Assembly (NCBI GenBank): GCA_011605725.1
Contig: JAAOZP010000010.1
Span: 1 to 64,000, forward strand
Direction of reading: 5' to 3'
DNA: 64,000 bases
From: Nitrososphaerota archaeon
GTDB taxonomy: Archaea; Thermoproteota; EX4484-205; JAAOZP01
Shown piece after piece: positions 1-14,520 of this stretch. The stretch's first letter is position 1; every line of letters starts with the position of its first letter. Both the position numbers and the translations under genes were made by a program. The notes under the pieces are model-generated. The model saw only the letters and a program-made list of their open reading frames with translations, did not search any database and was not told the origin of the DNA.

Positions 1-1454
1 CTCTTCTCCATATCAAAAGTAGCATTGGGTATGTAGAACTTAAAGAATAAAGCTTGCCTTCTTTCGTTTTTATCAGGATAAAGCTGCTTTAGCTGATTTG
101 AATCGTACCATGGAAAGTCTCGATTGTAAATTTTATTGCTCCCATTAAGCTGAGGAGCTTTGTTAGAGTACAAATTCCATTGAAGCATCATAAGGTCAAG
201 AACATCACCATCATTAGGCTTAATAATCCTCCCGCTCTTCTCCTTCTCAGCATAGCTTATCCCATACTTAGCATCAAATAGAGACCAAGCGTTAGCTATA
301 ACCTTGCCGTTCAAGCCTTCAAACATCTCAGGATGCTTAATTATTTCGAAACCTGAGTCTTGAATCCTCTTCAAATGCTCTGCCAAGATCCAAGTATTCC
401 TAGGAACATTGCTCTCAAGAACATAGTTATTTCCATCTATTGAGTAAAAGACTATCGGGCTGAAGTCAGCAATATCCTTGCTGATTTGAGTAGCATTAGT
501 TAAAAGCCAAGCTGAATCCTTATCAAGCCTTGGCAAGCCTTTCTCGTAAGCTAGAGTTAAGTTGTTAACAGCATGAATAGTTTGAATCATCAGATTTTTC
601 TTAATTAAATTCAAATCCTGATATTCTTTCAATCCTTTCAAGAACAATTCATTTCTATCTGAGCTTATCCTATTGTCTCTCTGAAATTGATCGTAAACAA
701 TTTTTACTAAAGTAGAATTAGCAGAGTAAGCTGGCAATACTAGTGTATAATTCTTAGCAAACTGTGGAAAATCTTTTAGAAAGTTTAACCCATCATACCC
801 ATTGCTATTAGCGAAATAAAGGTAATCCAAGCTGTCTTTCAAACTACCAAAAATTTTCAAGCTCTCTTCAGCCAAAGCTTTATCTTTAGCCCAAGATTTA
901 GCAAAATCAACCCAGGTAGAGTTTCCATTCTGCTTAGGATAACTAGCTATGAACTCTTCAGCCTGCTCATCGCTAAGACCAGCCTGCTTGTAAGGCTTCT
1001 TAGCTTCTTCTTTCTTCTGATTCTCCAAATGCTTGTAAACCAAATAGCTTCCTACAGCTGCGCTTGTAACTAAGCCAAGAAAAGCAATGGCTTTAACATG
1101 CTTAGAGTACAAACCCTCTTTTTTACCAACTTCTTTCCTTAAAGCTCTTATCTTTTCCCTAAGCTCACCTTCGCAAACTTTCTCCAAATCTTTAAGAGCA
1201 AAATAAATCTCTTCCCTCCTCAATCCTTTAACATAAAGCTCTTCTATGAAATCCTCATAATTCTCAACCCTTGCTTTTCTCCTTTTCAGAAAACCATTTT
1301 CAAACTTAACATTAACCCTATCAAAGTTAGAAAGAACGTTAAGCTTAGCTTTAGCTTGAGCAATCTTCTTCTCAGCACCAAGCTCAACAGTGCTTTTGTA
1401 AGGAATATAGTCTGAGCTTTTGCCTAAGCTGCCGCCTGATATACCTAGACTCAT
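1..1454 (-). CDS. Membrane-anchored protein, probably glycosylated ectodomain, >484 aa, runs off the window edge (absent from the ORF track)
   Basis: Open frame from ATG at 1454 (MSLGISGGSLGKSSDY...) with no stop to base 1; one hydrophobic segment (AIAFLGLVTSAAVGSYLVY) followed by several N-x-S/T sequons (NST, NYT, NLT, NAT, NGS). Confidence 0.8.
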   Translation of the reverse strand, partial: MSLGISGGSLGKSSDYIPYKSTVELGAEKKIAQAKAKLNVLSNFDRVNVKFENGFLKRRKARVENYEDFIEELYVKGLRREEIYFALKDLEKVCEGELREKIRALRKEVGKKEGLYSKHVKAIAFLGLVTSAAVGSYLVYKHLENQKKEEAKKPYKQAGLSDEQAEEFIASYPKQNGNSTWVDFAKSWAKDKALAEESLKIFGSLKDSLDYLYFANSNGYDGLNFLKDFPQFAKNYTLVLPAYSANSTLVKIVYDQFQRDNRISSDRNELFLKGLKEYQDLNLIKKNLMIQTIHAVNNLTLAYEKGLPRLDKDSAWLLTNATQISKDIADFSPIVFYSIDGNNYVLESNVPRNTWILAEHLKRIQDSGFEIIKHPEMFEGLNGKVIANAWSLFDAKYGISYAEKEKSGRIIKPNDGDVLDLMMLQWNLYSNKAPQLNGSNKIYNRDFPWYDSNQLKQLYPDKNERRQALFFKFYIPNATFDMEK

Positions 1455-1493
1455 ACCAACCAGTTAATTATTTAACGAAAACGGATTTAAACA

Positions 1494-1883
1494 TTAAACC
1501 ACGAGCTTCTCAAGCTGCTTATAGGCTATGAATATGTCGTTTGAAATCTGGTCTAAATCGATAATTATCACGTCCTTAATAGCTTCAGACTCTAAAAGCT
1601 CCTTCTTCGCTTCCCTTATTCCCTCATGCACAACGCTCTGGACTTCATAGGCAATGCCATTGCTGTAGTCGAAGACATCCACGTAAAGAGTGTTGCCGTT
1701 TATCGAAATAGGTGCTTCAGTGACAAAGCCATAGCCTCTTTCATGGAGAATTCTCCCTATTAAGGCCTTAACTATGAAGTGCTTAACAGACTCGTTTCCA
1801 GAAGGCAAAACCTTATTCTTCTCCCTTAAATCAAAACCTTGCTCCTCTAAATTCCTAACAGTTATGTAGTCCCTCCTCATCAC
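1494..1883 (-). CDS. Small PD-(D/E)xK-family nuclease-like protein (CoiA-like motif)
   Basis: ESxKH...K, TEAP, YVDVF...AYEVQS restriction-endonuclease-like motif pattern. Confidence 0.6.
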   Translation of the reverse strand: MMRRDYITVRNLEEQGFDLREKNKVLPSGNESVKHFIVKALIGRILHERGYGFVTEAPISINGNTLYVDVFDYSNGIAYEVQSVVHEGIREAKKELLESEAIKDVIIIDLDQISNDIFIAYKQLEKLVV

Positions 1884-1985
1884 TTGAGCAAATCATATTG
1901 TTCTTTAAAAAGTATCGGGCATGCTCTTTAGTAGAATTTGCATTTCATAACCTTATTTTGTTAAACATTTTATTCGGAAGCACTA

Positions 1986-1997
1986 TAGCGCGCGCTA
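1986..1997. repeat. Palindrome TAGCGCGCGCTA (GC-core site 1)
   Basis: 12-bp perfect palindrome in AT-rich intergenic DNA. Confidence 0.85.
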
Positions 1998-2033
1998 CGC
2001 ATTTCCAAAATTCTCTATGGTTATTAAGTTTTC

Positions 2034-2267
2034 TTAAATGCGCATTAATTCTTTCATGCGTTTATGACAAATATAACCACGCCACAAACACACAACAATA
2101 ATAACTAGGTAGATTAAAAATCCGATTTGAATGCCCCAGTTAAGAGTACTCGGCTCAGGTATACTAACGATTATACTAATAAGCCCTAGGCATCCAATTA
2201 CAAAGGCGCGTTCTAACCACTTATTTCTCTCTTCTTCTAATTCTTTAATTTTCGAAGGAATTGACAT
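2034..2267 (-). CDS. Small two-TM membrane protein
   Basis: Two hydrophobic helices flanked by charged ends. Confidence 0.65.
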   Translation of the reverse strand: MSIPSKIKELEEERNKWLERAFVIGCLGLISIIVSIPEPSTLNWGIQIGFLIYLVIIVVCLWRGYICHKRMKELMRI

Positions 2268-2323
2268 CTCGCCTTATTTTAACAATAAAACTTAAATTTA
2301 AGTCTTTTGGTGCGTAAGTTGGC

Positions 2324-2728
2324 ATGAGTGTTCCGTATATACCCTTCGAAAGCTTCCTAGACTTTACGGTTAAAGAACATATCAAGTTAGACTGTAAAGA
2401 ATTAGATGAAATAATGTCGAAATATAGCATCGAAAAGGAACTCTGCAATCTCAAAAAGATAGAAAATCTAGATAAATTAATAAGGCGAAATGTAGAGAAA
2501 ATTAGCCTTATATCATACTTTTCAGAACTCTGTTATTTAATTAAGAAGAGAAGCAAGAAGGAGACTGTCTTTAATCAGCTCTTTTTCGAGAATGAAAAGT
2601 TCGAAAAACTAAAGAAAGATTTGTTAGACAAATATAGGGAGAAGGCTGAAGAAGAAGCTATAAACTATGTAGCCTGGACCATAATAAAATTATGTAGCGA
2701 GCTTTTAGAATGGAATGTTCTTATTTAG
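2324..2728 (+). CDS. Hypothetical helical protein
   Basis: 134-aa ORF of protein-like composition; 4-nt stop overlap with the convergent ORF. Confidence 0.55.
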   Translation: MSVPYIPFESFLDFTVKEHIKLDCKELDEIMSKYSIEKELCNLKKIENLDKLIRRNVEKISLISYFSELCYLIKKRSKKETVFNQLFFENEKFEKLKKDLLDKYREKAEEEAINYVAWTIIKLCSELLEWNVLI

Positions 2729-4032
2729 ATTTTGACGTTAAGCATTTTTTCTGCTTTTTCAACACCATATGTCTTGACCAAGGCTTCACGCAAGTTATCA
2801 GCGAAATATTGCTTTATTTTTTCTTTAATGATACCATGTAGATTTTCATAAGATCTGCGTGCTTCTGGAAGAAGAGAAGACTCATTTAGTCTTTCCTCTA
2901 TAGCATCGTCTAAAGGAAGAAGAATATTATCTATCATATACATGTCGAGCTTTAAATCCTTAATACTACTATATACCATTTGTATTTCCTCTGTTGATAG
3001 AGGGATTCCCTTCTCAACCTTCTCTTTAATTCCTGGGATAAGGGTTTCCATAGTTAATATTTCTGTCGATAACTTTAAATATTTTTTGAAAGGAATTGCG
3101 AATCGCTCTTCAAAAGATTCGCATAATAGTTCAAGATAGTTTGGTGGAATAGTAGATTTTAGCATATCAGGAGAGGGATCAATATTGAATGATAATATTT
3201 CGTTTATCCGATCCAAAGTATACTGGGCGCTTGCAGCAGCTACGATGATTGTCAGAATCATTTCTGGATCTTTCTTTTTCTGTAAAAGTTCTTTGACAGG
3301 CTTCCATCTTTCGAAAATCTTTATTTGAGTTGAATTAATAGACAGCTTGCTTGGTGAAAGCAAGAATTCAGGCACTTTTTGACGATGGAGAGAATAGACT
3401 ATATATAACAACGCTGTATATAGCTCATACGCTGAATGTATGTCTTCTGGTTCCACATATTCGGATTCTCCTCTCAAAATAGATATGGCCCTTGCAAGTA
3501 AAAATATTGATGCCCTTTCCTTCTGATATACCGGGAGGCCCGCTTTATCTTTCATCGAGGAAAATTTCTTCCAAAGTTTTTCGTCTTCTTTATAGGCTGC
3601 TCTACTTATCTTGGTTCGTCCAAGATTTTCGAATATATCTTGCACTCTAATTATAGAATCCAGTATTTGATAGAGATAATAAGATTCATAATCGCTGACA
3701 TTTATTCTTCCTATAATTTGCTTAAAAAGCTCGCTTAATGGTAGCAGACTATTTATTTCTTCTATTACGCGGAATTTGTCAACCGTTATTTGGATTAACC
3801 GATTCGATGGTTTAGAGATTATTTTACCCGTAAGCAAATCAATTTCATAAGTTCCAATGGATAATGACGCATTGGTTTTTACACTCTGTATCCAAACCGC
3901 GCATTCTACAATTGTATCTAAAGGAGATACACCGATGTTAACATCTACATTCTTTAGGCTAATATCGAGTGCCTTTCTAATATCGTTTAAAATCATCTCA
4001 ACAATATTCTCACGAGACCAGCCTGCATACAT
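2725..4032 (-). CDS. Hypothetical protein with a stand-alone AAA+ lid-like (MCM/chelatase-type) segment
   Basis: aa ~140-205 KISRAAYKEDEKLW...LPVYQKERASIFLLARAISILRGESEYVEPEDIHSAYEL resembles the MCM lid pattern; no Walker motifs. Confidence 0.6.
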   Translation of the reverse strand: MYAGWSRENIVEMILNDIRKALDISLKNVDVNIGVSPLDTIVECAVWIQSVKTNASLSIGTYEIDLLTGKIISKPSNRLIQITVDKFRVIEEINSLLPLSELFKQIIGRINVSDYESYYLYQILDSIIRVQDIFENLGRTKISRAAYKEDEKLWKKFSSMKDKAGLPVYQKERASIFLLARAISILRGESEYVEPEDIHSAYELYTALLYIVYSLHRQKVPEFLLSPSKLSINSTQIKIFERWKPVKELLQKKKDPEMILTIIVAAASAQYTLDRINEILSFNIDPSPDMLKSTIPPNYLELLCESFEERFAIPFKKYLKLSTEILTMETLIPGIKEKVEKGIPLSTEEIQMVYSSIKDLKLDMYMIDNILLPLDDAIEERLNESSLLPEARRSYENLHGIIKEKIKQYFADNLREALVKTYGVEKAEKMLNVKI

Positions 4033-4533
4033 CTACGTGTATACCTCGGATGGAAATACCACCATTGTCGTGGTTTCTAATACTCCAGGTATTTCCAAGA
4101 TTTTGTTTAGTATACTCTCTAGCTCTTTTAGATCTTTTGCATCAACAGTAAGGATTACATCATAAACACCATAAATTACATCAGCTGTCATTACACCATC
4201 TAGATTTAGTAATGAACTAAATGTAATATCAATTCGACTAGGAATTATTTTCAGGAATATAAATGCATACGGTTCCTTCTTCAATGGCCTTGGGCTTTCT
4301 TTTGCTACGATAAATGTCTGAATGGCTCTTACCATATTCTCTTCTGCTCCTATTTTGCTTATTGGTTCATGCCATTTTGAGTCAAATTCACTAATAGTGT
4401 TAAACTGATTAACCTTACAGATTATATCAATTTCGCCACAAACCATATATGCACTAGCACCCATGTCTCTAATTTCGTTATGAATTCTTCTATGTGTTCC
4501 AGGCTTAGCTTTTATTCCAATGTATGCCCACAA
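4033..4533 (-). CDS. Tandem Lrp/AsnC ligand-binding (RAM) domain protein without HTH
   Basis: Two repeats: AYIGIKAKPG...VCGEIDIICKV...IQTFIV and AFIFLKIIPS...IYGVYDVILTV...LEIPGVLETTTMVV. Confidence 0.85.
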   Translation of the reverse strand: MWAYIGIKAKPGTHRRIHNEIRDMGASAYMVCGEIDIICKVNQFNTISEFDSKWHEPISKIGAEENMVRAIQTFIVAKESPRPLKKEPYAFIFLKIIPSRIDITFSSLLNLDGVMTADVIYGVYDVILTVDAKDLKELESILNKILEIPGVLETTTMVVFPSEVYT

Positions 4534-4539
4534 CTTTTA

Positions 4540-5037
4540 TCACTTTAATTTATTCCACGCGAATGTATAGATAGGTTCTAAGGGTATTTTCTTCTCCTTA
4601 AATTTTTCTTCTATTTCATCTAGGGCTTTTGCAACTTCTTTAAAGCTTACACCTCGGATTTGTAGTTCTTCGTTGATATATCTTTTATATTCGGAAGTTG
4701 CACGTAGAAGCCTAATTACTTGTACGGAAAAGCGGGCTACAGACATCCCTAGTGGCGTTAAACCGTAAAAACTATTCCGTCCCTCTCTCTGATTAAAGAC
4801 TAATCCGTCTTCTTGCAAAAGGCGCAAAGTATACGTTAAAACGGCACCGTCTGAAATATTGGTGAACTCTGCTATTTGAGAATAGCTCATTACATGATTG
4901 TTCTTTAGCCAACTAGCAAGACATATTAGGACTTTAAGTCTATTATCATCAAACATGATAGGAAAAAATCGTGCCAACACATCCATCGTAGCACTCACTA
5001 TCTTTGCTCTCTTTTCGTCTAGAGCTGCTGACGGCAT
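4540..5037 (-). CDS. Winged-HTH transcriptional regulator (ArsR/HxlR-like)
   Basis: NRLKVLICL...MSYSQIAEFTNISDGAVLTYTLRLLQEDGLV...REGRNSFYGLTPLG. Confidence 0.85.
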   Translation of the reverse strand: MPSAALDEKRAKIVSATMDVLARFFPIMFDDNRLKVLICLASWLKNNHVMSYSQIAEFTNISDGAVLTYTLRLLQEDGLVFNQREGRNSFYGLTPLGMSVARFSVQVIRLLRATSEYKRYINEELQIRGVSFKEVAKALDEIEEKFKEKKIPLEPIYTFAWNKLK

Positions 5038-5111
5038 CTTCTCTTTCCTCCTCCTTCCTCTATTTTTAGAGAAGAGAGGAGTATATAAACTTTTTCTCTT
5101 TGATAGTTATG

Positions 5112-5123
5112 ATAGCGCGCTAT
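5112..5123. repeat. Palindrome ATAGCGCGCTAT (GC-core site 2)
   Basis: 12-bp perfect palindrome; shares TTATGATAGCGCGC with site 4. Confidence 0.85.
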
Positions 5124-5275
5124 TTATTGTTCTTTTGTTCTTTAATAGTACACTTTATGATGTTTTCGCCCATACCTGTCTGGTTTTTCAACTACAAAAG
5201 TTTTGGCTCGCTTCCTTTCAAAAATTGCGCGTTAAAAACTTAAGCTATTTCTTCAAAAATTATTGAAGGAGCATT

Positions 5276-6340
5276 ATGAGCCTACAAGCTTTTTCAGACG
5301 AGTACTTGCCTAAAGCGATAATTGATAGGGAGAATGAGCAGGATGCTATAGCGAGCTACTTAAAAGATATCATGCTGATGAAGACTTCTAAAGTCCTCTA
5401 CATTCATGGTTCTCCAGGAGTTGGCAAGAGCACTGTCGTAAGAGCAGTCTTAAGCCAGTTTGAGGATTCAAACGAAAACTCTGTGGTTGCTCATTTGTCA
5501 TGCACTTCTCTAACTCCATACTTATGCTTGCAGGAGATTCACTCTAAGGTTTGCGGGCAATTGAGTAAAAGGCTTACTTCTCAGGAAATTGTAATGGAAA
5601 TTACGAGAAGACTATTGCTTAAAAAGTATGTTTTGATCGTTGCGTTAGATAATTTCGACAAGATGCAGGATGTTGAGCAGTTATTATGGAGCTTCCACGA
5701 GATCATGCAGAAGGTTCCTAGATTCGGCTTAATTTTGGTTTCAACAAGCAAGTTTGAGCTAATGGATATGGTTGGAGAAAGGCTCTACTCAAGGTTAAGA
5801 CCAGAGGTAATAGAGTTCAAGCCTTATTCAGCTAACAGGCTTTTCGAGATTATGAAGAGCAGGATCTTAGAAGCTTATGGAAAGCCTATTGCAGAGGATA
5901 GTGCTCTTGAGAAGATAGCTGAGTTCGCCGAAGTTAATGGCGGAAGCGCAAGGCATGCTTTAAAAATACTTTTAGATTCAATAGAAGAGGCACAAAGGTT
6001 AGAGTTAAGTAAGGTAAATTCTCAGGTTGTGGAGAAAGTCTTAGAACAAGAGAAGAAGAATCTTCTGTTATCTGAGCTGCATGAACTGAAAGAGGAGGCG
6101 CCGAGAGAATACGAGGTTTTGAAAGTTATAGCTGAGTTAAGCGTAAAAGAGGAAAACATTTACACAGGCTTGGTTGAGGAAGCTGTTAAGGAGAAAGGAC
6201 TTATGGTTTGTAGGCGAAGCTTGGAGTATTACTTGAGCGATTTGGAGAGAAGAGGGTTCCTCAAACTTAATAGCATTAGGATTAATAAAGGCCATTCTAC
6301 TAAAATTGAACTTATCATTCCTAGAGAATCTATTTCATGA
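5276..6340 (+). CDS. cdc6: Cdc6/Orc1-family replication initiator (element-borne)
   Basis: N-terminal FSDEYLP..IIDRENE; Walker A GSPGVGKS; Walker B variant ALDNFD; RLYSRL, FKPYS, GSARHAL sensor 2; C-terminal wHTH; GGAG RBS upstream. Confidence 0.92.
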   Translation: MSLQAFSDEYLPKAIIDRENEQDAIASYLKDIMLMKTSKVLYIHGSPGVGKSTVVRAVLSQFEDSNENSVVAHLSCTSLTPYLCLQEIHSKVCGQLSKRLTSQEIVMEITRRLLLKKYVLIVALDNFDKMQDVEQLLWSFHEIMQKVPRFGLILVSTSKFELMDMVGERLYSRLRPEVIEFKPYSANRLFEIMKSRILEAYGKPIAEDSALEKIAEFAEVNGGSARHALKILLDSIEEAQRLELSKVNSQVVEKVLEQEKKNLLLSELHELKEEAPREYEVLKVIAELSVKEENIYTGLVEEAVKEKGLMVCRRSLEYYLSDLERRGFLKLNSIRINKGHSTKIELIIPRESIS

Positions 6341-6350
6341 TTCGCAATTT
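6287..6350 (+). repeat. Direct repeat copy A = 3' end of cdc6 plus 10 nt
   Basis: 57/64 identical to 8403-8466; 6317-6350 (34 bp) is identical. Confidence 0.95.
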
Positions 6351-6509
6351 TTGCCAAATGGTGCGAGCAGTATCTATGAATATTGCTCATAAGTAACAAG
6401 CATGGATGAAGAGAATGATAATCGAGCGAAGTCCCTTCCAAGGAGCTGGCAGATACTAAAGAAGATTTACTCGAGAAAGAAGCCAGAAGATATTTAAGGC
6501 AAGAAATCA

Positions 6510-6521
6510 ATCGCGCGCGAT
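6510..6521. repeat. Palindrome ATCGCGCGCGAT (GC-core site 3)
   Basis: 12-bp perfect palindrome. Confidence 0.75.
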
Positions 6522-6572
6522 GGAAGTAAATGAAGCTCAGTTTGGAATGATTGGCATGTAGAAGAAACTTAT

Positions 6573-6588
6573 GATAGCGCGCGCTATC
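6573..6588. repeat. Palindrome GATAGCGCGCGCTATC (GC-core site 4)
   Basis: 16-bp perfect palindrome. Confidence 0.9.
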
Positions 6589-6798
6589 GATACCGCTGAT
6601 ATGCATGCCTGTACCAAGCCCACCTGATGACCGCCTCAGACCTGCAGTAAGGACTTCTCTGAGAAGCCAAGTGGCATAGGCCTCGCACGTGAAAAGGATA
6701 AGAAGCTCGGCCAGCATAGAATAGGATCAGGCGAGGTGAGAAATCAACCCTATACCCACCAACAAACTTCCTGATTAAGAGCGAAAATTTTAAATACA

Positions 6799-6806
6799 GC
6801 GCGCGC
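6799..6806. repeat. GCGCGCGC core (GC-core site 5)
   Basis: ACAGCGCGCGCCAC lies just upstream of the 6830 ORF, after a TTTTAAATA TATA-like box. Confidence 0.65.
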
Positions 6807-6829
6807 CACGTAAATTGGAGTAAACGGAC

Positions 6830-7534
6830 TTGGGCTGTAAAGTTATAGTTAGACTTGCCGTGACAACCCTCTTTTTACTTGTGCTGCTAACACTTCCAGC
6901 TGTCGTGTACGCTGCTCCTCAAGTAAGTGGGTATATATCTAGCCCAAGAAACGTGGCGTATGGAAATTCTTTTTCTATTAGCATAACTATCAAGAATAGT
7001 GGTGATAAAACTGCATATTTGTGTAATTTAGTCTTAGGCGTTCCCGCAGGATTTTCGGTATCTAAAACTAATATTTTTATTGGCGATTTAGGCCCAGGTA
7101 AAAGCAAGACATATTCAGTTAGCGTCACCGCACCAAAATATACAACTACAGGTACATTTACCGCAACGGTCTTTTATTCTAATAATCCGGGGGGCAAAGG
7201 TACTTCTTTAGCAGGATACATTTTTCCCTTAACTGTTCAGGTGAAGAGAGGAAATCTGATTACCTTTATGTTAGTTAGCACATCTGGGATACTCAAGAGC
7301 GCGACTATATCAGTTTATGATTCATCTGGGAAGTATGTTGCCGGAGGCGCTGGCATTGCGTCTAGTTCTACAAGTGGTGTCATGATTCAAGTCTATTTGC
7401 TTAATGGTAAGTATATGGTAGCCGCCGCCGGAAAAGTAGATACTCAGCGGGGAGAGAGGAACGCTTTTGGTCAAGCTAATTTTTATGCTGACAAGGATAA
7501 ATCCATACTTATGAACCTAAAGCCTATTCCATAA
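6830..7534 (+). CDS. Secreted or surface protein with an Ig-like (CARDB/NEW3-like) domain
   Basis: Signal peptide ending VYA; FSISITIKNSGD..A...GDLGPGKSKTYSVSVTAP pattern; second beta-rich domain. Confidence 0.75.
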   Translation: MGCKVIVRLAVTTLFLLVLLTLPAVVYAAPQVSGYISSPRNVAYGNSFSISITIKNSGDKTAYLCNLVLGVPAGFSVSKTNIFIGDLGPGKSKTYSVSVTAPKYTTTGTFTATVFYSNNPGGKGTSLAGYIFPLTVQVKRGNLITFMLVSTSGILKSATISVYDSSGKYVAGGAGIASSSTSGVMIQVYLLNGKYMVAAAGKVDTQRGERNAFGQANFYADKDKSILMNLKPIP

Positions 7535-7603
7535 GTTCCTCTGCAATGTGAAATTTGATCGCTCTCTGTATAAGATTTATAAACCAAAGAGAAAATACTT
7601 ATT

Positions 7604-7864
7604 ATGTCAGTTATTGACAAGATATCCAAAGAAAAACTGATAGGTTATTTTGCAGTCCTCTGGGGCGTATCTTTCTTACTTAATGGCGTATCAGGTTTGG
7701 TTTTTAACATCAGAGATATGGTAAATTCGGAAGTCTTTCAGTTATCGGCTTTAGCCAGCACGATAAATATCAGTATCGTAATTGGGTCTTTTCTTGATAT
7801 GCTAATGGGTATCGTATTAGTTGTCTTAGGGTTCAAGATACTGAAGGCCAAAGGTTCTTCATAG
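7604..7864 (+). CDS. Small two-TM membrane protein
   Basis: Two hydrophobic segments; TTTATAAA box upstream. Confidence 0.7.
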   Translation: MSVIDKISKEKLIGYFAVLWGVSFLLNGVSGLVFNIRDMVNSEVFQLSALASTINISIVIGSFLDMLMGIVLVVLGFKILKAKGSS

Positions 7865-8402
7865 GCTATAAAGAAGACCGGAATTATCGACAGACCACAC
7901 ACTCTTAACCCAATTTTCTTTCGCTTCAAAGAATTCTAATCCATGAACTCTACTCGTCTCTATAGACACAATATCATAAGTCTAAAACTTATGAAGCGAT
8001 TCCCGGTTGTATATCACGCCACGGAGATGGCGGGCTTTTAAATTATTTAATCAGGAATAATGTTTTATGGAACATTCGAAATCGATCACTTGACAGAAGC
8101 TCTTGATAAATTTATTCGAAATAATAAGGAAGAAGTGATGCGTCAACTGAAGAAATGCGTTAGGATTTAAAAAATGGGAAACTAACAATTCTATGCTCTC
8201 TATTTTTGCAATCTTTAGATTAGATTTTTACTAGATTAAGGTAGACAATAATCAGTTTCTACTCTCAATGGCGCGCCTGTTTACAATGATGTAGCAAATG
8301 CATACCTATGTGAAGAGACTCATTCCAAAATAACATTGAACAGTTTACTTGTTCATTGCCCTAATTGTCCAAATTGTCAAGAGCCTACCCCCTTGAGTGG
8401 GA

Positions 8403-8466
8403 AAAGGTCATTTAACTCAAATTGAGCTTACTATTCCTAGAGAATCTATTTCATGATTCGCAATTT
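8403..8466 (+). repeat. Direct repeat copy B = displaced cdc6 3' end (KGHLTQIELTIPRESIS*)
   Basis: Same coding frame and stop as the cdc6 C-terminus KGHSTKIELIIPRESIS*. Confidence 0.95.
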
Positions 8467-8519
8467 CTGATTGGAAAAGAGAACGATTTCTTTAGGCTTA
8501 TTAGACTTATGAAAGGAGC

Positions 8520-8624
8520 ATGAGTAGAAATCTTCACGAGCTTGTTGAAAGGATTCACGAATTGTTGAAGCAGGGTTATGAAGAATGGAAGCAGATGGAA
8601 GAAAGAACAAATAAGAATGAGTAG
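8520..8624 (+). CDS. 34-aa small ORF upstream of the integrase (MSRNLHELVERIHELLKQGYEEWKQMEERTNKNE)
   Basis: Preceded by AAGGAGC, the same RBS context as cdc6; amphipathic helix; backbone-like codon style. Confidence 0.5.
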   Translation: MSRNLHELVERIHELLKQGYEEWKQMEERTNKNE

Positions 8625-8671
8625 CTTGTCCCTAAAAACCTAACTATCGCTCATTCTCCCAGGCGGGGCAT

Positions 8672-9895
8672 TTGACCAATAGTTATATAAATAGGGACAA
8701 ACTAATTTTGATCATGGATTTTATTCGTAATTATTCTGAAAAATTTGAAAAGTTTGAGAAAAGGTTGAAAGATATAGAGTTGAGCAGGACGAATAAGCTC
8801 TTGCTCAAAAATTTTTCAGACTATCTGTTAGCGTCAGGAATATCTAAGGGCAGGGTGTTGAAGTATGCCAGCCATTTAATTCACATAGTTAAAATTCTCG
8901 GCAAAGATTTAGATAAGGCTAGTAGAGAGGATTTGATTAAAGTAATCGGAGAGATCGAGAAGAAGAACTATTCTGCTTGGACAAAGCACGATTATAAAGT
9001 TGCTTTGAAAAAGTTCTACAAGTGGCTTAAAGGAGAGCAGGAAGGCAGAGCTTTTACAGACTGGTTTAAGGTTACTGTTAAGAACAACAATAAGAAACTC
9101 CCTGAAGAATTGTTGAGCGTTGAAGATATTGAGAAGCTTGCTTCCGCTTCTTCTAACCTGAGGGATAAGGCTTTTGTTCTGGCTTTGTACGAGAGCGGTG
9201 CAAGGATTGGAGAATTCTTGCCCATAAAGATTAAGCAGGTTGAGTTCGATAGGTATGGGGCTCTGCTTACTCTGCACGGCAAGACTGGCTCTAGGAAGAT
9301 TAGGCTCATAACTTGTGTTCCTGCTTTGATCCAATGGCTTGATTCCCATCCTTGCAAAAACGATAAGGAGGCTTTCGTTTGGGTCAAGGTTAAAGCTAAT
9401 AACGGTAATGAGATTATAACTTATGCTGAGGCATGCAAGATACTTAAGGAATTGGCTAAGAAGGCTGGAATAAGCAAGCCTGTTAACCCGCATCATTTCC
9501 GCCACTCTAGAGCTACTGAGCTAGCTAAACATTTGACTGAAGCACAATTGTGCGAATACTTGGGATGGGTTCAGGGAAGCGATGAGGCAAATACTTACGT
9601 CCATTTAAGCCAGAGAGATATAGAGTCAGCAATACTAAAGCTGCACGGGATAGAGGTTGAAGAAGAGAAGGAGCTTGAGTTCAAGCCGATTGTTTGCCCT
9701 AGATGCAAGAAGCAGAATTCTCCAGGCTCAAAGTTCTGCTCATTATGCGGATTAGCGTTAGACTTGAAATCTGCGATAGAGCTGGACTCAAAGCTTGAAA
9801 GCATGGCTGAGATTTTCGCAAGCTTGCTTGAAGACTCTAAGACTAGGAGGATGATAGTTAGAGAGGCTTTGAGAAAAGGGTTGAAGATAAGGTGA
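8672..9895 (+). CDS. int: Tyrosine recombinase/integrase with C-terminal zinc ribbon (probable start ATG 8714)
   Basis: YESGARIGE (R), GKTG (K), HHFRHSRAT (HxxR), LGW, TYVHL (Y); CPRC...CSLC tail; TTATATAAA box at ~8683. Confidence 0.95.
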   Translation: MTNSYINRDKLILIMDFIRNYSEKFEKFEKRLKDIELSRTNKLLLKNFSDYLLASGISKGRVLKYASHLIHIVKILGKDLDKASREDLIKVIGEIEKKNYSAWTKHDYKVALKKFYKWLKGEQEGRAFTDWFKVTVKNNNKKLPEELLSVEDIEKLASASSNLRDKAFVLALYESGARIGEFLPIKIKQVEFDRYGALLTLHGKTGSRKIRLITCVPALIQWLDSHPCKNDKEAFVWVKVKANNGNEIITYAEACKILKELAKKAGISKPVNPHHFRHSRATELAKHLTEAQLCEYLGWVQGSDEANTYVHLSQRDIESAILKLHGIEVEEEKELEFKPIVCPRCKKQNSPGSKFCSLCGLALDLKSAIELDSKLESMAEIFASLLEDSKTRRMIVREALRKGLKIR

Positions 9896-9958
9896 GTGAA
9901 TTATTTGCTACTCGCATCTTTTTCATGCATTTAAAATCCTTAAAACTCAGAAAAACGA

Positions 9959-11467
9959 TTATAAATTGCCTTCGATAAAGGCTTGGTGATCGTAAACTAG
10001 TTTATATTTGTTCTCTTTCATTTCTACAACTGCTAAGTTCGAAAGGGTTTTCAGAGCTTGAAAAATTTCTTCCTCAGTATATCCTTCTGGCGGCATGTAG
10101 AGGTAAAGCTTGTAAGCTTTTTTAAACCTTGGATCTTGAATTAACTTGTATATTTCATTTACCGGCAGCGGTTTATTTAGGTGTAGGAGTAAAATTTTGA
10201 AAACACATCTTACAGCTCCGGCTTTTCTAAGACGAGTATCTTCTTTGCTTTGTAATTTTTCCTGCGTAAAATCTCTTTGAGGACAGAATAATATTAAATC
10301 CGGTATCTCTTCTTCTGTCAGCTTAGCATCTACTCCGATTTTTTCTAGACAAATATTTAAAGCATGCATCAATCTTTTTCTCGGATTTTCATTTTTCGAC
10401 TTTCTTAGGGCAATCGGAATTTCTGACAAAACACCGGGCCACCTTTTTTCTAAAGAGTTGTACCATAGCATTGCCATTAACTGGCCGTATGGAACAAAAC
10501 CCAGAGCAATGTTTAAATAAGGTTTGAGAGAAGAGTCTGTCGAAGCCTCTCTGAGTGTTAATATATTGACTAATGCATGTTCCAATTCTATGAAGCCTTT
10601 TTCCTCTATGCTTTTGTTAGAATTCTTGTTAATTGATGTTCCAATATTGAGGACTGAGTGAATGACTTCATGTATTAGAACTATTTTCCACAGAAATCCG
10701 AGAAAAAGCGGCCAAAAGTTACAGAAAATGAATACTTTTACTGAATCTTGTTTAATCTTAATAGGCCTTGAGCTTCCAAGTATGTAGGTTATTCCGTTCC
10801 GTCTCCCGCTTATAAGATAGCATAGTATTTTTTCACAAGATATTTTCATTTTTTCTCTTAACCACATCTCACTTAGTTTTAACACGTTTCTATTAAGATC
10901 GTATTTTTCAAACTCTTGTCGTAAAAAATCAAAATGATCATCAATACTCTTGCTCCTGTACCTTTCTATAGTCTCTCTAATAGAACTTAACAACTCATCC
11001 GTGAAAGGGTATTCGTAGTCTAAAAGATCTTCTAATGCTTTTTCTGTTTCAGACTTTTCTAAAAAAGATATTAAGGAGACTAATCTTTTCCCTAAGTAAA
11101 TACTAATGTGTGCTGCATCGCTATGTTTCTGCATAACTTTATCAAAAGATTCTGAGAGCAAGAGTATTGAGTACACGTCAAGGTGAGGGAACTTTACATC
11201 CTTTACCTTATGGAGTTCTCTTAACTTTTCTAGAAAATGCTTTGCTACTTCATCTCTTCTTGAGCTAAAGCGTTTCTCAATCTCCGTAAGGTTGCCGCAA
11301 AAGCATGTGTCAACAATTTTAAACAATTCTTCTCTTTGATCTTGACTGCTCACACGATATAATTCTGCGAATGCCTTTACCGCTAAAGCACATCCATACA
11401 ACTCGGAATCTGGAAGAGCATGAAAAGCGATATCTCTTAAGGAAGAAAGCAACTCGTTCAAAGACAT
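9959..11467 (-). CDS. Putative gluzincin-type HExxH metallopeptidase fused to a C-terminal winged helix
   Basis: IVLIHEVIHS (aa 266-270), downstream ELEHAL Glu ligand; C-terminal LPVNEIYKL...EEIFQALKTLSNLAVVEMKENKYKL wHTH pattern. Confidence 0.6.
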   Translation of the reverse strand: MSLNELLSSLRDIAFHALPDSELYGCALAVKAFAELYRVSSQDQREELFKIVDTCFCGNLTEIEKRFSSRRDEVAKHFLEKLRELHKVKDVKFPHLDVYSILLLSESFDKVMQKHSDAAHISIYLGKRLVSLISFLEKSETEKALEDLLDYEYPFTDELLSSIRETIERYRSKSIDDHFDFLRQEFEKYDLNRNVLKLSEMWLREKMKISCEKILCYLISGRRNGITYILGSSRPIKIKQDSVKVFIFCNFWPLFLGFLWKIVLIHEVIHSVLNIGTSINKNSNKSIEEKGFIELEHALVNILTLREASTDSSLKPYLNIALGFVPYGQLMAMLWYNSLEKRWPGVLSEIPIALRKSKNENPRKRLMHALNICLEKIGVDAKLTEEEIPDLILFCPQRDFTQEKLQSKEDTRLRKAGAVRCVFKILLLHLNKPLPVNEIYKLIQDPRFKKAYKLYLYMPPEGYTEEEIFQALKTLSNLAVVEMKENKYKLVYDHQAFIEGNL

Positions 11468-11481
11468 TTTACTGTTCTAAA

Positions 11482-11769
11482 TTACCACTCAACAGGCTCC
11501 AGGCAATGACGACATATTATTTTAAGGGCTTTTTCCGAATGATGAGTCTCTACAGACTCGCCGTAGGCTGTAGGAGTAACAGGAAAACCGCACTCTGCAC
11601 AAGGAATGCTTTCATGCATAATTTTCTGATAAACCTCTTTCGGTATCTTTCCAGATTTATAATCGTTTTCTAATCTTTCTCTAGCCTCCTTCTCCATTTT
11701 TAACTCACGTTTGTACAAGGCATTAGTAAGTTTTTCAACAAAATCTTCAGCTTTTTCACTCGTTTGCAT
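11482..11769 (-). CDS. Small zinc-finger protein (CAEC...CRHC) with a SHOCT-like helical hairpin
   Basis: Two CxxC pairs; LENDYKSGKIPKEVYQKI; GGAGG RBS upstream; 14 nt from the HExxH gene. Confidence 0.7.
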   Translation of the reverse strand: MQTSEKAEDFVEKLTNALYKRELKMEKEARERLENDYKSGKIPKEVYQKIMHESIPCAECGFPVTPTAYGESVETHHSEKALKIICRHCLEPVEW

Positions 11770-11829
11770 GATGTTTAATCCTCCTTTACCATTATATTTT
11801 TCCCCTTATATTTTTAAACTTTACACTTC

Positions 11830-11851
11830 ACCTACCACATTTTAGGTAGGT
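11830..11851. promoter_or_regulatory. Inverted repeat ACCTACC-N8-GGTAGGT in a divergent promoter
   Basis: Perfect 7-bp arms between the divergent 11769(-) and 11888(+) starts. Confidence 0.45.
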
Positions 11852-11887
11852 AGTAAAGTTTAATTAGGTTGAAAGGAACAACATGGC

Positions 11888-12520
11888 ATGAATAAAGATG
11901 CAGAGCGCAGGATATTACTGCAGAGAGTGTTTTACAAGGATAGAGACCTATATAAAATAGGAAAGTTTGCTGGCATAGCTTGGTTCAACAAATTTGAAGC
12001 AAAATTTGAAAGGGATATATACGCGTATTTTGCTGATGAAGAAAGAAGGGAGGCAGTGGAGAAAATTACTTTAGAAGTTTCTGATGAGAAGTTTATTGAT
12101 GCATTTAATAAAGTGTTCAAAGAGGAGCCAAGGTATATCGAGATCGATAGGTTCATTGGTGAACATTATTATTTTGATGTAAACACAGGACTTAGGCTTG
12201 AGAATAGACAAGAAAATCTTAAGAAGGAAATACGGAGTGCATTGGAGGAAACAGGTAAAAGGGGTTTTTATTTTCTTAAGGCGATTATTGAATTATACAA
12301 GGAGGGTAAATGGGATAAAGCGTACGGTGGAGCCACTTGGGCGGATATACTGGCCAAAATAAGAGAGCTTGGCGGTGAATATCCTGCAGCCCGCGACGTA
12401 GCTCTTCTAAAATCATATAAGATATACTATAAAACCGGAAGCAGAAGATACCCGACGCACACTATCCCTGAAGAAATAATTCCTTTGGTTGAGAAAGTTC
12501 TAAATGAAATGGCAGTCTGA
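11888..12520 (+). CDS. Hypothetical protein, possible C-terminal wHTH
   Basis: 210-aa ORF; GATWADILAKIRELGG...LLKSYKIYYKTGSRRYPTH helix-helix-wing pattern. Confidence 0.65.
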   Translation: MNKDAERRILLQRVFYKDRDLYKIGKFAGIAWFNKFEAKFERDIYAYFADEERREAVEKITLEVSDEKFIDAFNKVFKEEPRYIEIDRFIGEHYYFDVNTGLRLENRQENLKKEIRSALEETGKRGFYFLKAIIELYKEGKWDKAYGGATWADILAKIRELGGEYPAARDVALLKSYKIYYKTGSRRYPTHTIPEEIIPLVEKVLNEMAV

Positions 12521-12741
12521 AATCACAGCCCATACCAATTCATGTAACCCCCACAGTATTTTTACCAAAAGTTATACATGCACCTAATTAAGTGCAAATA
12601 CGCGTGTTTAACCTAAAAAATCCTAGGCTTGAATCCAGCTTGTTGTTCCACGCGTGCTATAACAAGGATTTGTGAAGCATTGTAATTAGCACGATTTTTA
12701 TGCTTAGAAAAGTGATGAACCTCATGATATTTTAAGTTAAG

Positions 12742-12756
12742 ATCCCGGCGACCCCA
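12742..12756 (+). other. Putative attR: tRNA (most like Pro) 3'-end duplicate ATCCCGGCGACCCCA
   Basis: Matches the T-loop end, T-stem and acceptor 3' strand of archaeal tRNA-Pro (..TTCAAATCCCGGCG(G/A)CCCCA); no 5' half upstream; sits at the composition boundary. Confidence 0.8.
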
Positions 12757-12853
12757 TTGCTCCAATCACGGTTTATCGTTCAAACCTCAAGCTTGCTAAG
12801 CTCCTAATATTCTATGCGAAAAGTTTATACGTCTACGTTTTTCTACCTCAACG

Positions 12854-13081
12854 TTGCCTGCTTACTATTGCCCGGAATGTGGAGGAGAGTTAAAATACGA
12901 ACCCGCTACCAAGCTATATGTATGCAAGGCGTGTGGAAGGGTTTACGAGTTTGAGGAGTTGAAAATCACTAAAGAAAAGTTTCTTAAATCCGTGATGGAG
13001 AGTGATGAGGAGAAGAGGAGGAAGCGTAGACGGGAAGTTGTTAAATGGTGGTTGGGTGAGAAGTCGGCAGAAGAGGAATAG
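12854..13081 (+). CDS. Small zinc-ribbon protein
   Basis: CPECGG...YVCKACG plus a charged C-terminal helix. Confidence 0.8.
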   Translation: MPAYYCPECGGELKYEPATKLYVCKACGRVYEFEELKITKEKFLKSVMESDEEKRRKRRREVVKWWLGEKSAEEE

Positions 13082-13260
13082 TGCAGAACCTTTTTAACAC
13101 CATTTTCAAGCCGGCTTCGATTTTCACTCGTTTTAGTAATGCGGTAAATAAATGTAAATAAGTTGTTCGCAGTTTATTGTTTTCGCTGAACCCTTAGGAT
13201 GGCTTGGCTGCTCATGAGTAATTTTTAAAAGCCTAGGGTTTTCCAAGACTATTACCAAGA

Positions 13261-14520
13261 ATGGCTAATCCAGCTGATCGTTTTAAGCCTTATAGCTTCA
13301 GCGACGTGGAGAAACAGTATGTTGAGCGGATAATGCTTGACGTTAGGAAGAGGGGGGACAAGGCTCTTTTAGACTATACTTCACGTCCAAGGCCTTTCGA
13401 CAATGTTAGGCTTACGAGAAGACAGCTTATGGTTAGTGAAAAGGAGATTAAAGAATCCGAGGAGAGAGTAACAGTTGAAGTCAAGAAAGCGATTCTATTC
13501 TTGATGAAGAGCGTTAAGAAGGTAGTTAGATTGCAGATAAAGGCTTTTCAACCAGTTGTCTTCAGGGGAGGAGGGTTTGAATACTCTCTGCGTCTTTACC
13601 CTATTGAAAGGATCGGTATTCTAGTTCCAGGTGGAAGAGCATCCTATGCTTCAACACTGGTTATGGCAGCCTATCCGGCTGTCTTAGTTGGTGTTAAAGA
13701 TATCTGTATTCTAACACCCCCGAGGCCAGACGGGTCTGTCAATCCAGCGATACTTTATGCTGCTAGGTTAATGGGTTTGGGAAGGGTTTACAGGTGCAAT
13801 ATGGTTGCGGGAGTGGGTGCTTTGGCTTTTGGTACAGAATCTATCCCGAGGGTTGACAAGATATTCGGTCCAGGGAACAGGTTTGTGATGATGGCGAAGA
13901 TGATTGCAAGCAGTTACGGTGCTTCGATAGATATTCCTGCCGGGCCTTCGGAGCTTGTTGTGCTCGCGGATTCAAGTGCAGACCCTGATTTAGTTGCTTT
14001 AGACCTAGCCGCGCAGGCTGAGCACTCGCCTGATGCTTTTACAGTGTTGGTCACGAATTCCCCTCGGATAGCAAAGTCCGTTAAGAAAATATTTACAACG
14101 CTTTCAGAAAGGCTGCATTTAAAAGTAAGGCTTAACACATATATTGTTGGTTCTGTTAGAGAAGGTGTAGAGAAATGCAACCTGCTAGCACCTGAACATG
14201 TTTCGCTGCACGTCGAGAATCCTAGGGCGATAGCCCGTCAGCTGACCGTCGCAGGAACGGTTTTTCTTGGGAAATATTCACCACCTGCTGTAGGGGATTA
14301 TGCTTCAGGAAGCAACCATATTCTTCCAACATCTGGATATGCGAAAGTAAGAGGCGGGGTGACAGTGCTTGACTATCTGAGGCTCGTATCCTATCAAAGT
14401 TTTTCCATGAAATATGTGAAATCAGTCAGCAGGCATGTTGAGGCTTTAAGCATTGCAGAGGGGCTTCCTCTCCACGGTGCGAGTGTTAAGGCTAGGCTTA
14501 TTGGGAGGCCTATTTTATGA
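13261..14520 (+). CDS. hisD: Histidinol dehydrogenase
   Basis: GILVPGGRASY, GPGNRFV, IDIPAGPSE, QAEH, APEH, GDYASGSNHILPT. Confidence 0.97.
   Translation: MANPADRFKPYSFSDVEKQYVERIMLDVRKRGDKALLDYTSRPRPFDNVRLTRRQLMVSEKEIKESEERVTVEVKKAILFLMKSVKKVVRLQIKAFQPVVFRGGGFEYSLRLYPIERIGILVPGGRASYASTLVMAAYPAVLVGVKDICILTPPRPDGSVNPAILYAARLMGLGRVYRCNMVAGVGALAFGTESIPRVDKIFGPGNRFVMMAKMIASSYGASIDIPAGPSELVVLADSSADPDLVALDLAAQAEHSPDAFTVLVTNSPRIAKSVKKIFTTLSERLHLKVRLNTYIVGSVREGVEKCNLLAPEHVSLHVENPRAIARQLTVAGTVFLGKYSPPAVGDYASGSNHILPTSGYAKVRGGVTVLDYLRLVSYQSFSMKYVKSVSRHVEALSIAEGLPLHGASVKARLIGRPIL

Follow-up and report, generated by a model that had tools for sequence, protein, structure and literature searches.

The window, that is, the whole 64,000-nt stretch of archaeal DNA analysed here, begins with a low-GC element of ~12.7 kb that is integrated into tRNA-Pro. 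The backbone of this element and of its siblings has a conserved order of a 129-aa ORF, cdc6, a 34-aa ORF and a XerA-like integrase, and in the window a cargo lies between cdc6 and the 34-aa ORF, flanked by two copies of the cdc6 3' end. The features of the island are the following:

1896-5205, unstranded: second variable cargo slot, upstream of cdc6, with a wHTH gene, a RAM-domain gene and a 435-aa gene; missing in siblings L014 and L019
5276-6340, + strand: cdc6/orc1, encoding an element-encoded Orc1/Cdc6-like initiator of 354 aa (Pfam, NCBIfam and PDB matches)
6287-6353, + strand: copy A of the direct repeat, covering the final 17 codons of cdc6 with their stop codon and 10-13 nt past it (repeat alignment)
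6317-6350, + strand: 34-nt block common to copy A, copy B and the empty site of sibling L015 (sequence comparison); putative crossover region
6351-8402, + strand: inserted cargo of 2052 nt (2116 nt with one repeat copy); missing in five siblings
6510-6587, unstranded: two perfect GC-core palindromes (12 nt at 6510-6523 and 16 nt at 6572-6587)
6797-6809 and 8269-8278: two more GC-core palindromes
6830-7534, + strand: CARDB-like secreted protein of 234 aa (Pfam CARDB, 2.2e-6; NPCBM_assoc, 3.2e-6)
7604-7864, + strand: hydrophobic ORF of 86 aa without a family (ORF listing, Pfam)
8403-8469, + strand: copy B of the direct repeat, which follows a stop codon and resembles the cdc6 tail as a non-coding relic or mimic; identical in L014
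8520-8625, + strand: 34-aa backbone ORF upstream of the integrase (88-97% identity in L010, L014 and L015)
8672-9895, + strand: XerA/XerCD-like tyrosine recombinase of 407 aa with a C-terminal zinc ribbon (Pfam Phage_integrase, 1.4e-18; SAM_1; Zn_Ribbon_1)
12735-12757, + strand: 3' fragment of tRNA-Pro(GGG) (tRNA match), probable attR of the whole island

The cdc6 product contains the Pfam domains AAA_22, AAA_16 and Cdc6_lid, matches NCBIfam TIGR02928 (E = 3.7e-42, 144.5 bits, under the cut-off of 181.3) as well as PDB structures of Cdc6/Orc1 proteins (e.g., 2qby_A at 1.5e-15), and belongs with the Orc1/Cdc6 initiators, whose members combine an AAA+ domain (with Walker A) and a Cdc6 lid with a winged helix at the C-terminus. 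The Cdc6 proteins of the siblings are 74-97% identical to it. In the AlphaFold model, three helices at residues 276-325 are compatible with a winged helix, and the last 22 residues (333-354) have a pLDDT below 50, so that the model does not show the C-terminal wing; from topology alone, this tail would be the wing. The reading frame is undamaged despite the insertion at its 3' end. The tail differs from that of L015 by one residue (T347I), and its KGHST-I-L residues are unchanged in 5/5 siblings. An earlier note on this DNA had suggested that a replacement of the tail could alter origin specificity, which is unsupported because the wing residues are invariant in these five siblings and the working tail departs from that of L015 only at T347I. 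A possible ORB-like motif was noticed at the cdc6 stop codon of L016.

The integrase matches NCBIfam XerA_Arch (6.5e-33, below cut-off), and its translation shows HxxR and TYVH motifs. The last 15 nt of the tRNA-Pro fragment are identical to the end of the tRNA-Pro gene located elsewhere in the same genome (C19:~162020-162106). The polarity of the fragment is that of the cdc6 repeat, as its 5' part is diverged and the 15 identical nt after it break off abruptly. In L015, the same fragment is found 960 nt past the integrase. The host gene hisD begins at 13261 of the window. Since the island ends in a tRNA-Pro 3' fragment, the resident integrase most likely serves the tRNA-Pro att site and would not target the cdc6 tail. 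No motif of at least 9 nt is common to the cassette ends and the tRNA-Pro att arm, and a scan of positions 1-13300 against Rfam gave no match.

The direct repeats at 6287-6350 and 8403-8466, reported earlier as 64 bp long with the last 34 bp identical, were confirmed (57/64 nt; 59/67 nt when extended to 6353 and 8469). Their mismatches are unevenly placed, with 7/30 in the 5' part and 0/34 in the 3' part (Fisher p = 0.003). Copy A closes cdc6 with KGHSTKIELIIPRESIS and the stop codon, followed by 10 nt, and copy B encodes KGHLTQIELTIPRESIS and a stop codon, with an in-frame stop before it. The match between both copies goes far past what chance would give (E = 4e-16 in a blastn search of the full 2.23-Mb assembly). 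Exactly two copies of the 34-mer exist in the genome, even allowing up to 3 mismatches. The possibility that copy B is a decayed full cdc6 paralog, named in the earlier note as a refutation of its reading, was ruled out, as tblastn up to E 100 finds only the last 19 codons and no further cdc6 remnant 5' of copy B. Compared with the empty-site tail of L015, copies A and B differ at 5/30 and 4/30 nt, respectively. The copy-specific changes in the repeat are four in A, three in B and one in L015, being mostly synonymous in copy A and non-synonymous in copy B. Core sites of tyrosine recombinases have inverted binding arms on either side of a 6-8-nt overlap. The 34-nt core holds GAATC-N8-GATTC, but a comparable inverted repeat occurs in 11% of shuffled 34-mers and is not significant.

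The protein of the cargo at 6830-7534, described from the sequence as Ig-like and secreted, does match CARDB and NPCBM_assoc and starts with a hydrophobic leader, and a TATA-like box lies ~40 nt 5' of its gene. One further homologue was found (P0002, 68% identity) on a 5.1-kb JGI contig, and none in 26 genomes of the class. The product of the 86-aa ORF, read as a small membrane protein, is 100% identical in L014. The region 7865-8402, previously taken for decayed fragments, is non-coding by ORF listing, and no gene of origin could be linked to it. Additionally, the four GC-core palindromes that had been noticed are present at the positions listed, and GCGCGC-type sites occur at 6 places in 1-8300 versus 2 in the other 56 kb. 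Their role as universal cargo borders was considered and dropped, as they are enriched in the window but missing from the cargo of L015 and L016 in the slot upstream of cdc6 (slot 1); they are read as operators or a donor feature and not as a recombination site.

No integrase, excisionase, recombinase domain or remnant, or recognisable recombination site was found in 6351-8402, and the insert has neither the transposase nor the terminal inverted repeats of a transposon or IS. It is present in a single copy in its own genome, and a search of 16 genomes of the genus gave no DNA match. Neither the sibling backbones nor other parts of its genome resemble it (blastn-short, tblastx). Likewise, phage records and viral contigs yielded no source of the insert, and no free circle or attP-bearing donor was found among the viral contigs.

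Five siblings (L015, G013:C64, L016, L017 and L018) have an empty site, in which cdc6 is followed directly by the small ORF and the integrase, and in this ancestral arrangement cdc6 ends ~180 nt 5' of the small ORF. L015 has the same 34-mer, continuing straight into the small ORF and the integrase. Empty sites are found in every other lineage, down to 72% DNA identity. Searches with cdc6 (60 relatives, 400 genomes of the phylum) returned nothing beyond G013 and a fragment of 50% identity in G110. A sixth sibling, L014, comes from an independent metagenome assembly and carries the same insert with both the same junctions in a different backbone. In a comparison of the window with L014, 4 substitutions over 2052 nt (0.2%) and 2 indels were counted in the insert and 0/64 differences in copy B, versus 83/1081 (7.7%) in the cdc6 flank and 21/475 (4.4%) in the integrase-side backbone. 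Also, the 112 nt to the right of copy B are free of mismatches, so that the low-divergence block may span ~6287 to 8578; equally long runs occur elsewhere in that backbone. The right end of this block (8578) had been considered as proof of block transfer and was dropped, since mismatch-free runs of 104-130 nt exist elsewhere in the backbone.

The insert is a real insertion. Its presence with two junctions in the independent assembly of L014 shows that it is not an assembly artefact, the other refutation foreseen in the earlier note. The five empty sites support the claim of an insertion at the cdc6 3' end and correspond to the alleles predicted there, in which cdc6 runs straight into the integrase region (8467-9895); alleles with a different insert at this site, also predicted, were not found among the siblings. 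Finally, because the insert is near-identical between backbones that are 4-8% diverged, the cargo was exchanged between siblings after backbone divergence, in agreement with the swap between sibling elements proposed earlier as one option.

Similar arrangements are found at other backbone genes of the element family. The 3.3-kb cargo of slot 1 in the window is flanked by diverged copies of the sequence upstream of cdc6, an insert of 1.3 kb located 5' of cdc6 in L015 is bracketed by a 43-nt repeat, and a stretch of 2.6 kb in L017 is enclosed by a duplication of 111 nt from the integrase 3' end, the mismatches being clustered 5' in both siblings. In L018, no flanking repeat was seen within 17 kb. 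The three duplicated anchors of the family (the cdc6 tail and those of L015 and L017) are unrelated in sequence, as would be expected from homology-driven recombination more than from a single fixed att site.

Here it is proposed, with slightly better than even confidence, that the cargo is a cassette without an integrase but with a mimic of the cdc6 tail, and that a single reciprocal crossover in the 34-nt block inserted it. A circular DNA with the cargo and the diverged mimic would have recombined once with the resident tail, within the identical 34 nt (Campbell-type insertion), leaving cdc6 intact and placing the diverged 5' part of the mimic at copy B. Candidate enzymes would be the neighbouring integrase (in trans or on homology), the integrase of another element, or host homologous recombination. 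The position of the crossover is inferred and not read, because the distance to the tail of the empty site is equal for A and B. This proposal is supported by the repeat geometry and its mismatch asymmetry, the uniqueness of the repeat, the empty sites, the independently filled L014, which is without slot-1 cargo, the divergence contrast between window and L014, and the like architecture of the repeats in L015 and L017. The literature documents att sites that lie within protein-coding genes, as well as the exchange of modules among archaeal elements (PMC8371274). Against it are the lack of an integrase, excisionase or recognisable recombination site within the insert, the lack of a motif common to the cdc6-tail core and the likely tRNA-Pro att of the resident integrase, the unrelated sequences of the three duplicated anchors, the non-significant symmetry of the core, the fact that no free circle, attP-bearing donor or second cargo at this site was found, and mismatch counts that, taken alone, are compatible with a target duplication followed by drift.

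A possible, if doubtful, alternative is that two siblings were joined, either in tandem at tRNA-Pro or as a cointegrate made by homologous recombination, and that a subsequent deletion, reaching from the cargo of the first sibling to the final 64 nt of cdc6 in the second, left copy B as the rest of the second cdc6. The filled locus would later have spread to other backbones in one block, through double crossover between homologous flanks. Module exchange between tandem archaeal elements via homologous recombination has been described (PMC8371274), the module inside the integrase-tail duplication of L017 is 72-94% similar to the next module, and paralogues of a backbone 484-aa gene, located in the same genome at contig ends beside tRNA-Pro, hint at an array; furthermore, the low-divergence block shared with L014 may exceed one cassette unit. 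However, this history needs two junctions (10 nt after the cdc6 stop and 54 nt before the second stop) and not one event, the insert has no trace of a sibling backbone, cdc6 directly precedes the integrase in the other five siblings, with no known donor having cdc6 and then cargo, and the mismatch-free 112 nt to the right of copy B are not telling, given the equal runs elsewhere. A chimeric join at the 34-nt repeat has a practically negligible probability; the genome is metagenome-assembled, the window begins at a contig end and repeats do break this assembly, but the contig of L014 has the same insert and two junctions in a backbone 4-8% different and without the 3.3-kb slot-1 cargo.

It is quite improbable that the repeat is a long target-site duplication, generated by a staggered-cut or replication-linked (template-switch) insertion, whose copies drifted while selection kept the 3' 34 nt. 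The numbers of copy-specific changes roughly fit drift since the split from L015, with synonymous changes prevailing in A and non-synonymous ones in B, and the 34-mer, unaltered in L015 too, may simply be conserved. Nevertheless, there are no transposase, terminal inverted repeats or further copies of the insert in the genome or genus, target duplications of 43-111 nt are not known from any transposase, and a copy B that is identical in backbones 4-8% diverged is not expected from independent drift after separate insertions. The reverse polarity, with the filled state being ancestral and the empty siblings having lost the cargo by recombination between the repeats, is highly improbable. Deletion between 64-nt direct repeats should be easy and would give an exact empty site; yet every other lineage is empty, out to the most distant one, an old repeat should show a far more decayed copy B, and the insert is only 0.2% diverged versus 4-8% for the backbones.

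The proposed cassette insertion shares features with several known systems. Archaeal and bacterial integrative elements of the lambda/pNOB8 type enter the 3' end of a tRNA or protein-coding gene without breaking the gene (PMC8371274). As with them, the insert is bounded by the complete gene end on one side and by a partial copy on the other, here the 64-67-nt repeat, in which an identical core (the 34-nt 3' block) is followed by an abrupt loss of similarity; relatives have an empty site, and the target gene is intact. In contrast to them, the insert has no integrase of its own, the gene that it entered is no host gene but the replication initiator of another mobile element, and the only nearby integrase appears to serve the tRNA-Pro att. 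The CIMEs of streptococcal ICE/IME arrays, which keep attL and attR and have lost the recombination genes (PMC5704250), are also short recombinase-less cargo between att-like direct repeats, beside a recombinase-encoding element. CIMEs use the att of the neighbouring ICE, arise by accretion and are decayed elements, whereas the repeats described here are unrelated to the tRNA-Pro att of the island and nothing marks the insert as a decayed autonomous element. Similarly to integrons, a Xer-related recombinase gene is located ~200 nt from the insertion point of a recombinase-less cassette, but an attC-like folded site, a cassette array and the divergent intI/Pc arrangement are all missing, and TATA-like boxes belong to the cassette genes themselves. 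The insert is single, the cdc6 tail is the only repeat, and the palindromes are not in the cargo of other siblings.

The resemblance to module exchange among archaeal plasmids and viruses is found in the conserved backbone anchors with differing cargo between them and in a cargo far less diverged than the backbone. The same cargo occurs here in diverged backbones, and the slots upstream of cdc6 and downstream of the integrase hold different cargo among siblings. The integrase of pTN3 catalyses homology-dependent recombination, with reported substrates of roughly 100 bp (PMC8371274; PMC5495485), close to the 43-111 nt of the duplicated anchors. The integrase of the window is XerA-like with a zinc ribbon, and any membership of the pTN3/SSV group would be hypothetical. 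A broader and unlikely reading is that the family takes up cargo in slots at its backbone gene ends (5' of cdc6, at the cdc6 tail and at the integrase tail), where recombinase-less cassettes with mimics of the local backbone would be captured, and passed between siblings, by the XerA-like integrase acting on short homology and not on one fixed att, as reported for Int-pTN3.

The insertion of cargo behind a duplicated cdc6 tail is a broadly familiar kind of event, an instructive but not surprising case of modular evolution. It provides a natural example with an empty site, a filled site and a second filled backbone, and shows that small recombinase-less cargo can be placed at a gene end without damage to the gene. 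If it is true that the neighbouring integrase or host recombination acts on ~34-64 nt of homology, this would offer a handle for engineering such elements. It also shows cargo passing between related mobile elements of an uncultured thermophilic archaeon.

The 3' end of the cdc6 gene is present twice in the window, as a direct repeat (6287-6353 and 8403-8469) that is identical at 59 of 67 nt, or at 57/64 over the span in the earlier note, which had described a duplicated tail with a mismatch-free final 34 nt, and this description was borne out. The seven mismatches are all confined to the first 30 nt, leaving the last 34 nt free of them (Fisher p = 0.003). In a search of the repeat against the whole genome E was 4e-16, and the 2.23-Mb assembly has exactly two occurrences of the 34-nt core (6317-6350), even when up to three mismatches are permitted. 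The reported content of the insert (6351-8402) was also found, namely palindromes, a CARDB-like secreted protein (6830-7534) and an 86-aa hydrophobic ORF.

Features around the cdc6 tail repeat
1983-1997, 5110-5122, 6510-6523, 6572-6587, 6797-6809, 8269-8278: GC-core palindromes of the TAGCGCGC(GC)TA type
5276-6340: Orc1/Cdc6-like AAA+ protein, 354 aa (Pfam AAA_22 and Cdc6_lid; PDB Cdc6/Orc1 matches)
6287-6353: copy A, the end of the 354-aa ORF plus 10-13 nt
8403-8469: copy B, non-coding, with an in-frame stop ahead and no start codon
8672-9895: XerA/XerCD-like tyrosine recombinase with a C-terminal zinc ribbon
13261: start of hisD

Sibling elements were collected by a metagenome scan with the Cdc6 protein, which gave six loci, and by a genus search, which gave a seventh (G013:C64). 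Alleles with cdc6 running directly into the integrase region, as sought among relatives, were seen in five of these. In L015, whose Cdc6 is 96% identical, the tail contains the 34-mer unchanged and abuts the sequence found after copy B of the window, followed by a 34-aa ORF and then the integrase; G013:C64 has the same arrangement, and the more distant L016, L017 and L018 (Cdc6 75-79% identical) are empty too. By parsimony, the empty site would be the ancestral state. L014 (97%) is filled, having the same insert and both repeat copies. Because L014 comes from a different assembly and is without the 3.3-kb cargo found at 1896-5205 in the window, an assembly artefact is ruled out.

Contig C17 begins with the window, whose first ~13 kb have a G+C content of about 37%, against about 46% for the remainder. 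At the right border of this island, the last 15 nt of a fragment (12735-12757) match exactly the final 15 nt of tRNA-Pro(GGG) on contig C19, and ~8 more nt match partly. The same fragment is found in L015, 960 nt past the integrase and with the same 40-nt arm ahead. These borders indicate that tRNA-Pro is the integration site of the island, and most likely the site served by its own integrase. C19 has the intact tRNA-Pro close to its end (window 12696-12757 compared with C19:162017-166350), and 1.9 kb beyond that gene there is an inverted paralogue, 79% identical to the 484-aa gene of the window (3-1454). C19 and C17 may abut, the assembly being broken by these inverted paralogues.

Compared with the empty tail of L015, copy A has 5/30 differences in the first 30 nt, mostly synonymous plus T347I, and copy B has 4/30, which result in S-to-L and K-to-Q. 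Because these changes of copy B are non-conservative, at otherwise invariant wing residues, and copy B is identical in both filled backbones, it fits a non-functional copy travelling with the cargo. A decayed full cdc6 paralog, the simple tandem duplication considered earlier, is absent, as tblastn with Cdc6 over the insert matched the last 19 codons only. The tail residues would correspond to the wing, as inferred from the three-helix winged-helix topology at residues 276-325 of a model that is unreliable for 333-354. The working Cdc6 keeps KGHST-I-L, which is invariant across all five siblings, and therefore the suggestion that tail replacement altered origin specificity is unsupported.

The same ORF matches TIGR02928 at 3.7e-42, below the cut-off of that model. 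Its Walker B region (5645-5659, residues 124-128) reads LDNFD, with Asn replacing the usual Glu; as all five sibling proteins have it invariantly, it characterises the family and is no lesion. A patch at 6259-6275 differs at 9/17 nt in the window only (FLKLNSI vs FVRLSSV, the other version being common to L014, L015 and G013), and so a short tract of conversion is suspected in this winged-helix strand, immediately ahead of the repeat. Two isolated fragments of related cdc6 genes were also found. One, in contig C9 of the same genome (C9:1223-1468), covers residues 3-86 at 48% identity and runs out in a (GC)n tract; the other, from a different family's genome (G110:C131:29942-30325), covers residues 116-242 at 50% identity. 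Both are probably remnants of decayed elements.

The two filled loci differ unevenly along their length.

Divergence between the window and L014
5206-6286, cdc6 body: 83/1081 differ (7.7%)
Copy A: 1/64 differ
Insert, 2052 nt: 4 substitutions and 2 indels
Copy B: 0/64 differ
8467-8941, right backbone: 21/475 differ (4.4%)

Selection does not explain the contrast between insert and backbone, because much of the insert is non-coding. This pattern indicates that cargo moved between sibling elements and that, in one backbone or both, it is much younger than the split of the backbones. The low-divergence block has its left edge between 6287 and 6302 and its right edge between 8089 and 8578; the right edge stays this broad since stretches of 104-130 nt without a mismatch are frequent in the right backbone. 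Both separate insertions of one cassette via crossover in the repeat core, and passage of the whole filled locus via a double crossover in the flanks, would fit.

A second cargo slot lies between a 129-aa ORF and cdc6 (1896-5205), holding here 3.3 kb with a wHTH gene, a RAM-domain protein and a 435-aa orphan. L014 and L019 have nothing in this slot, and in L015 and L016 it is occupied by unrelated DNA of 1.3-1.4 kb. The sequence upstream of cdc6 is duplicated on both sides of the slot, clearly in L015, where a 43-nt repeat (81%) brackets the 1.3-kb insert, and weakly in the window. In L017, the last 111 nt of the integrase gene are present twice (2393-2503 and 5033-5143, 95%), the mismatches falling in positions 15-32 and the stop codon. 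Between the two copies lie 2.6 kb with a TIR-domain gene and with diverged counterparts (72-94%) of the two genes located after the second repeat copy. GC-core palindromes occur at six places in the first 8.3 kb of the window, while the remaining 56 kb have two GCGCGC sites. Of the six, one directly follows the CARDB gene's TATA-like box and another is ~75 nt upstream of the wHTH gene. The cargo of neither L015 nor L016 contains them, so they resemble operator sites, or a signature of the donor, more than borders of the cargo.

The cdc6-tail repeat is diverged in its 5' part and identical in its 3' block, past which similarity stops abruptly; the tRNA-Pro fragment of the island has this polarity too. 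Because a single reciprocal crossover yields this arrangement, it is proposed that an incoming circle with a diverged copy of the cdc6 end would have recombined in this way at the resident tail. The main rival, in which two siblings were joined and a deletion followed, is made credible by the structure of L017; however, it requires two precise junctions and a donor arrangement seen in no sibling. A Campbell-type insertion is favoured, for which more than one enzyme is a candidate: the three duplicated anchors of the family (cdc6 tail, 43-nt and 111-nt repeats) are unrelated sequences, no recombinase was found in the insert, and the cdc6-tail core has nothing in common with the tRNA-Pro att and no significant symmetry in its GAATC-N8-GATTC. 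Candidate agents would be host homologous recombination, the resident integrase acting on short homology, as demonstrated for Int-pTN3 (PMC5495485), or a foreign integrase.

The insert itself did not qualify as an autonomous integrative element, an integron cassette or a transposon. Archaeal elements are known to insert into gene 3' ends while preserving the gene, to have att sites within protein-coding genes and to exchange modules with their relatives (PMC8371274), and bacterial CIMEs are segments bounded by att repeats without a recombinase (PMC5704250). In contrast to these, the target here is the initiator gene of the mobile element itself, the repeats are unrelated to the att of the host element, and the exchange between siblings is measurable.
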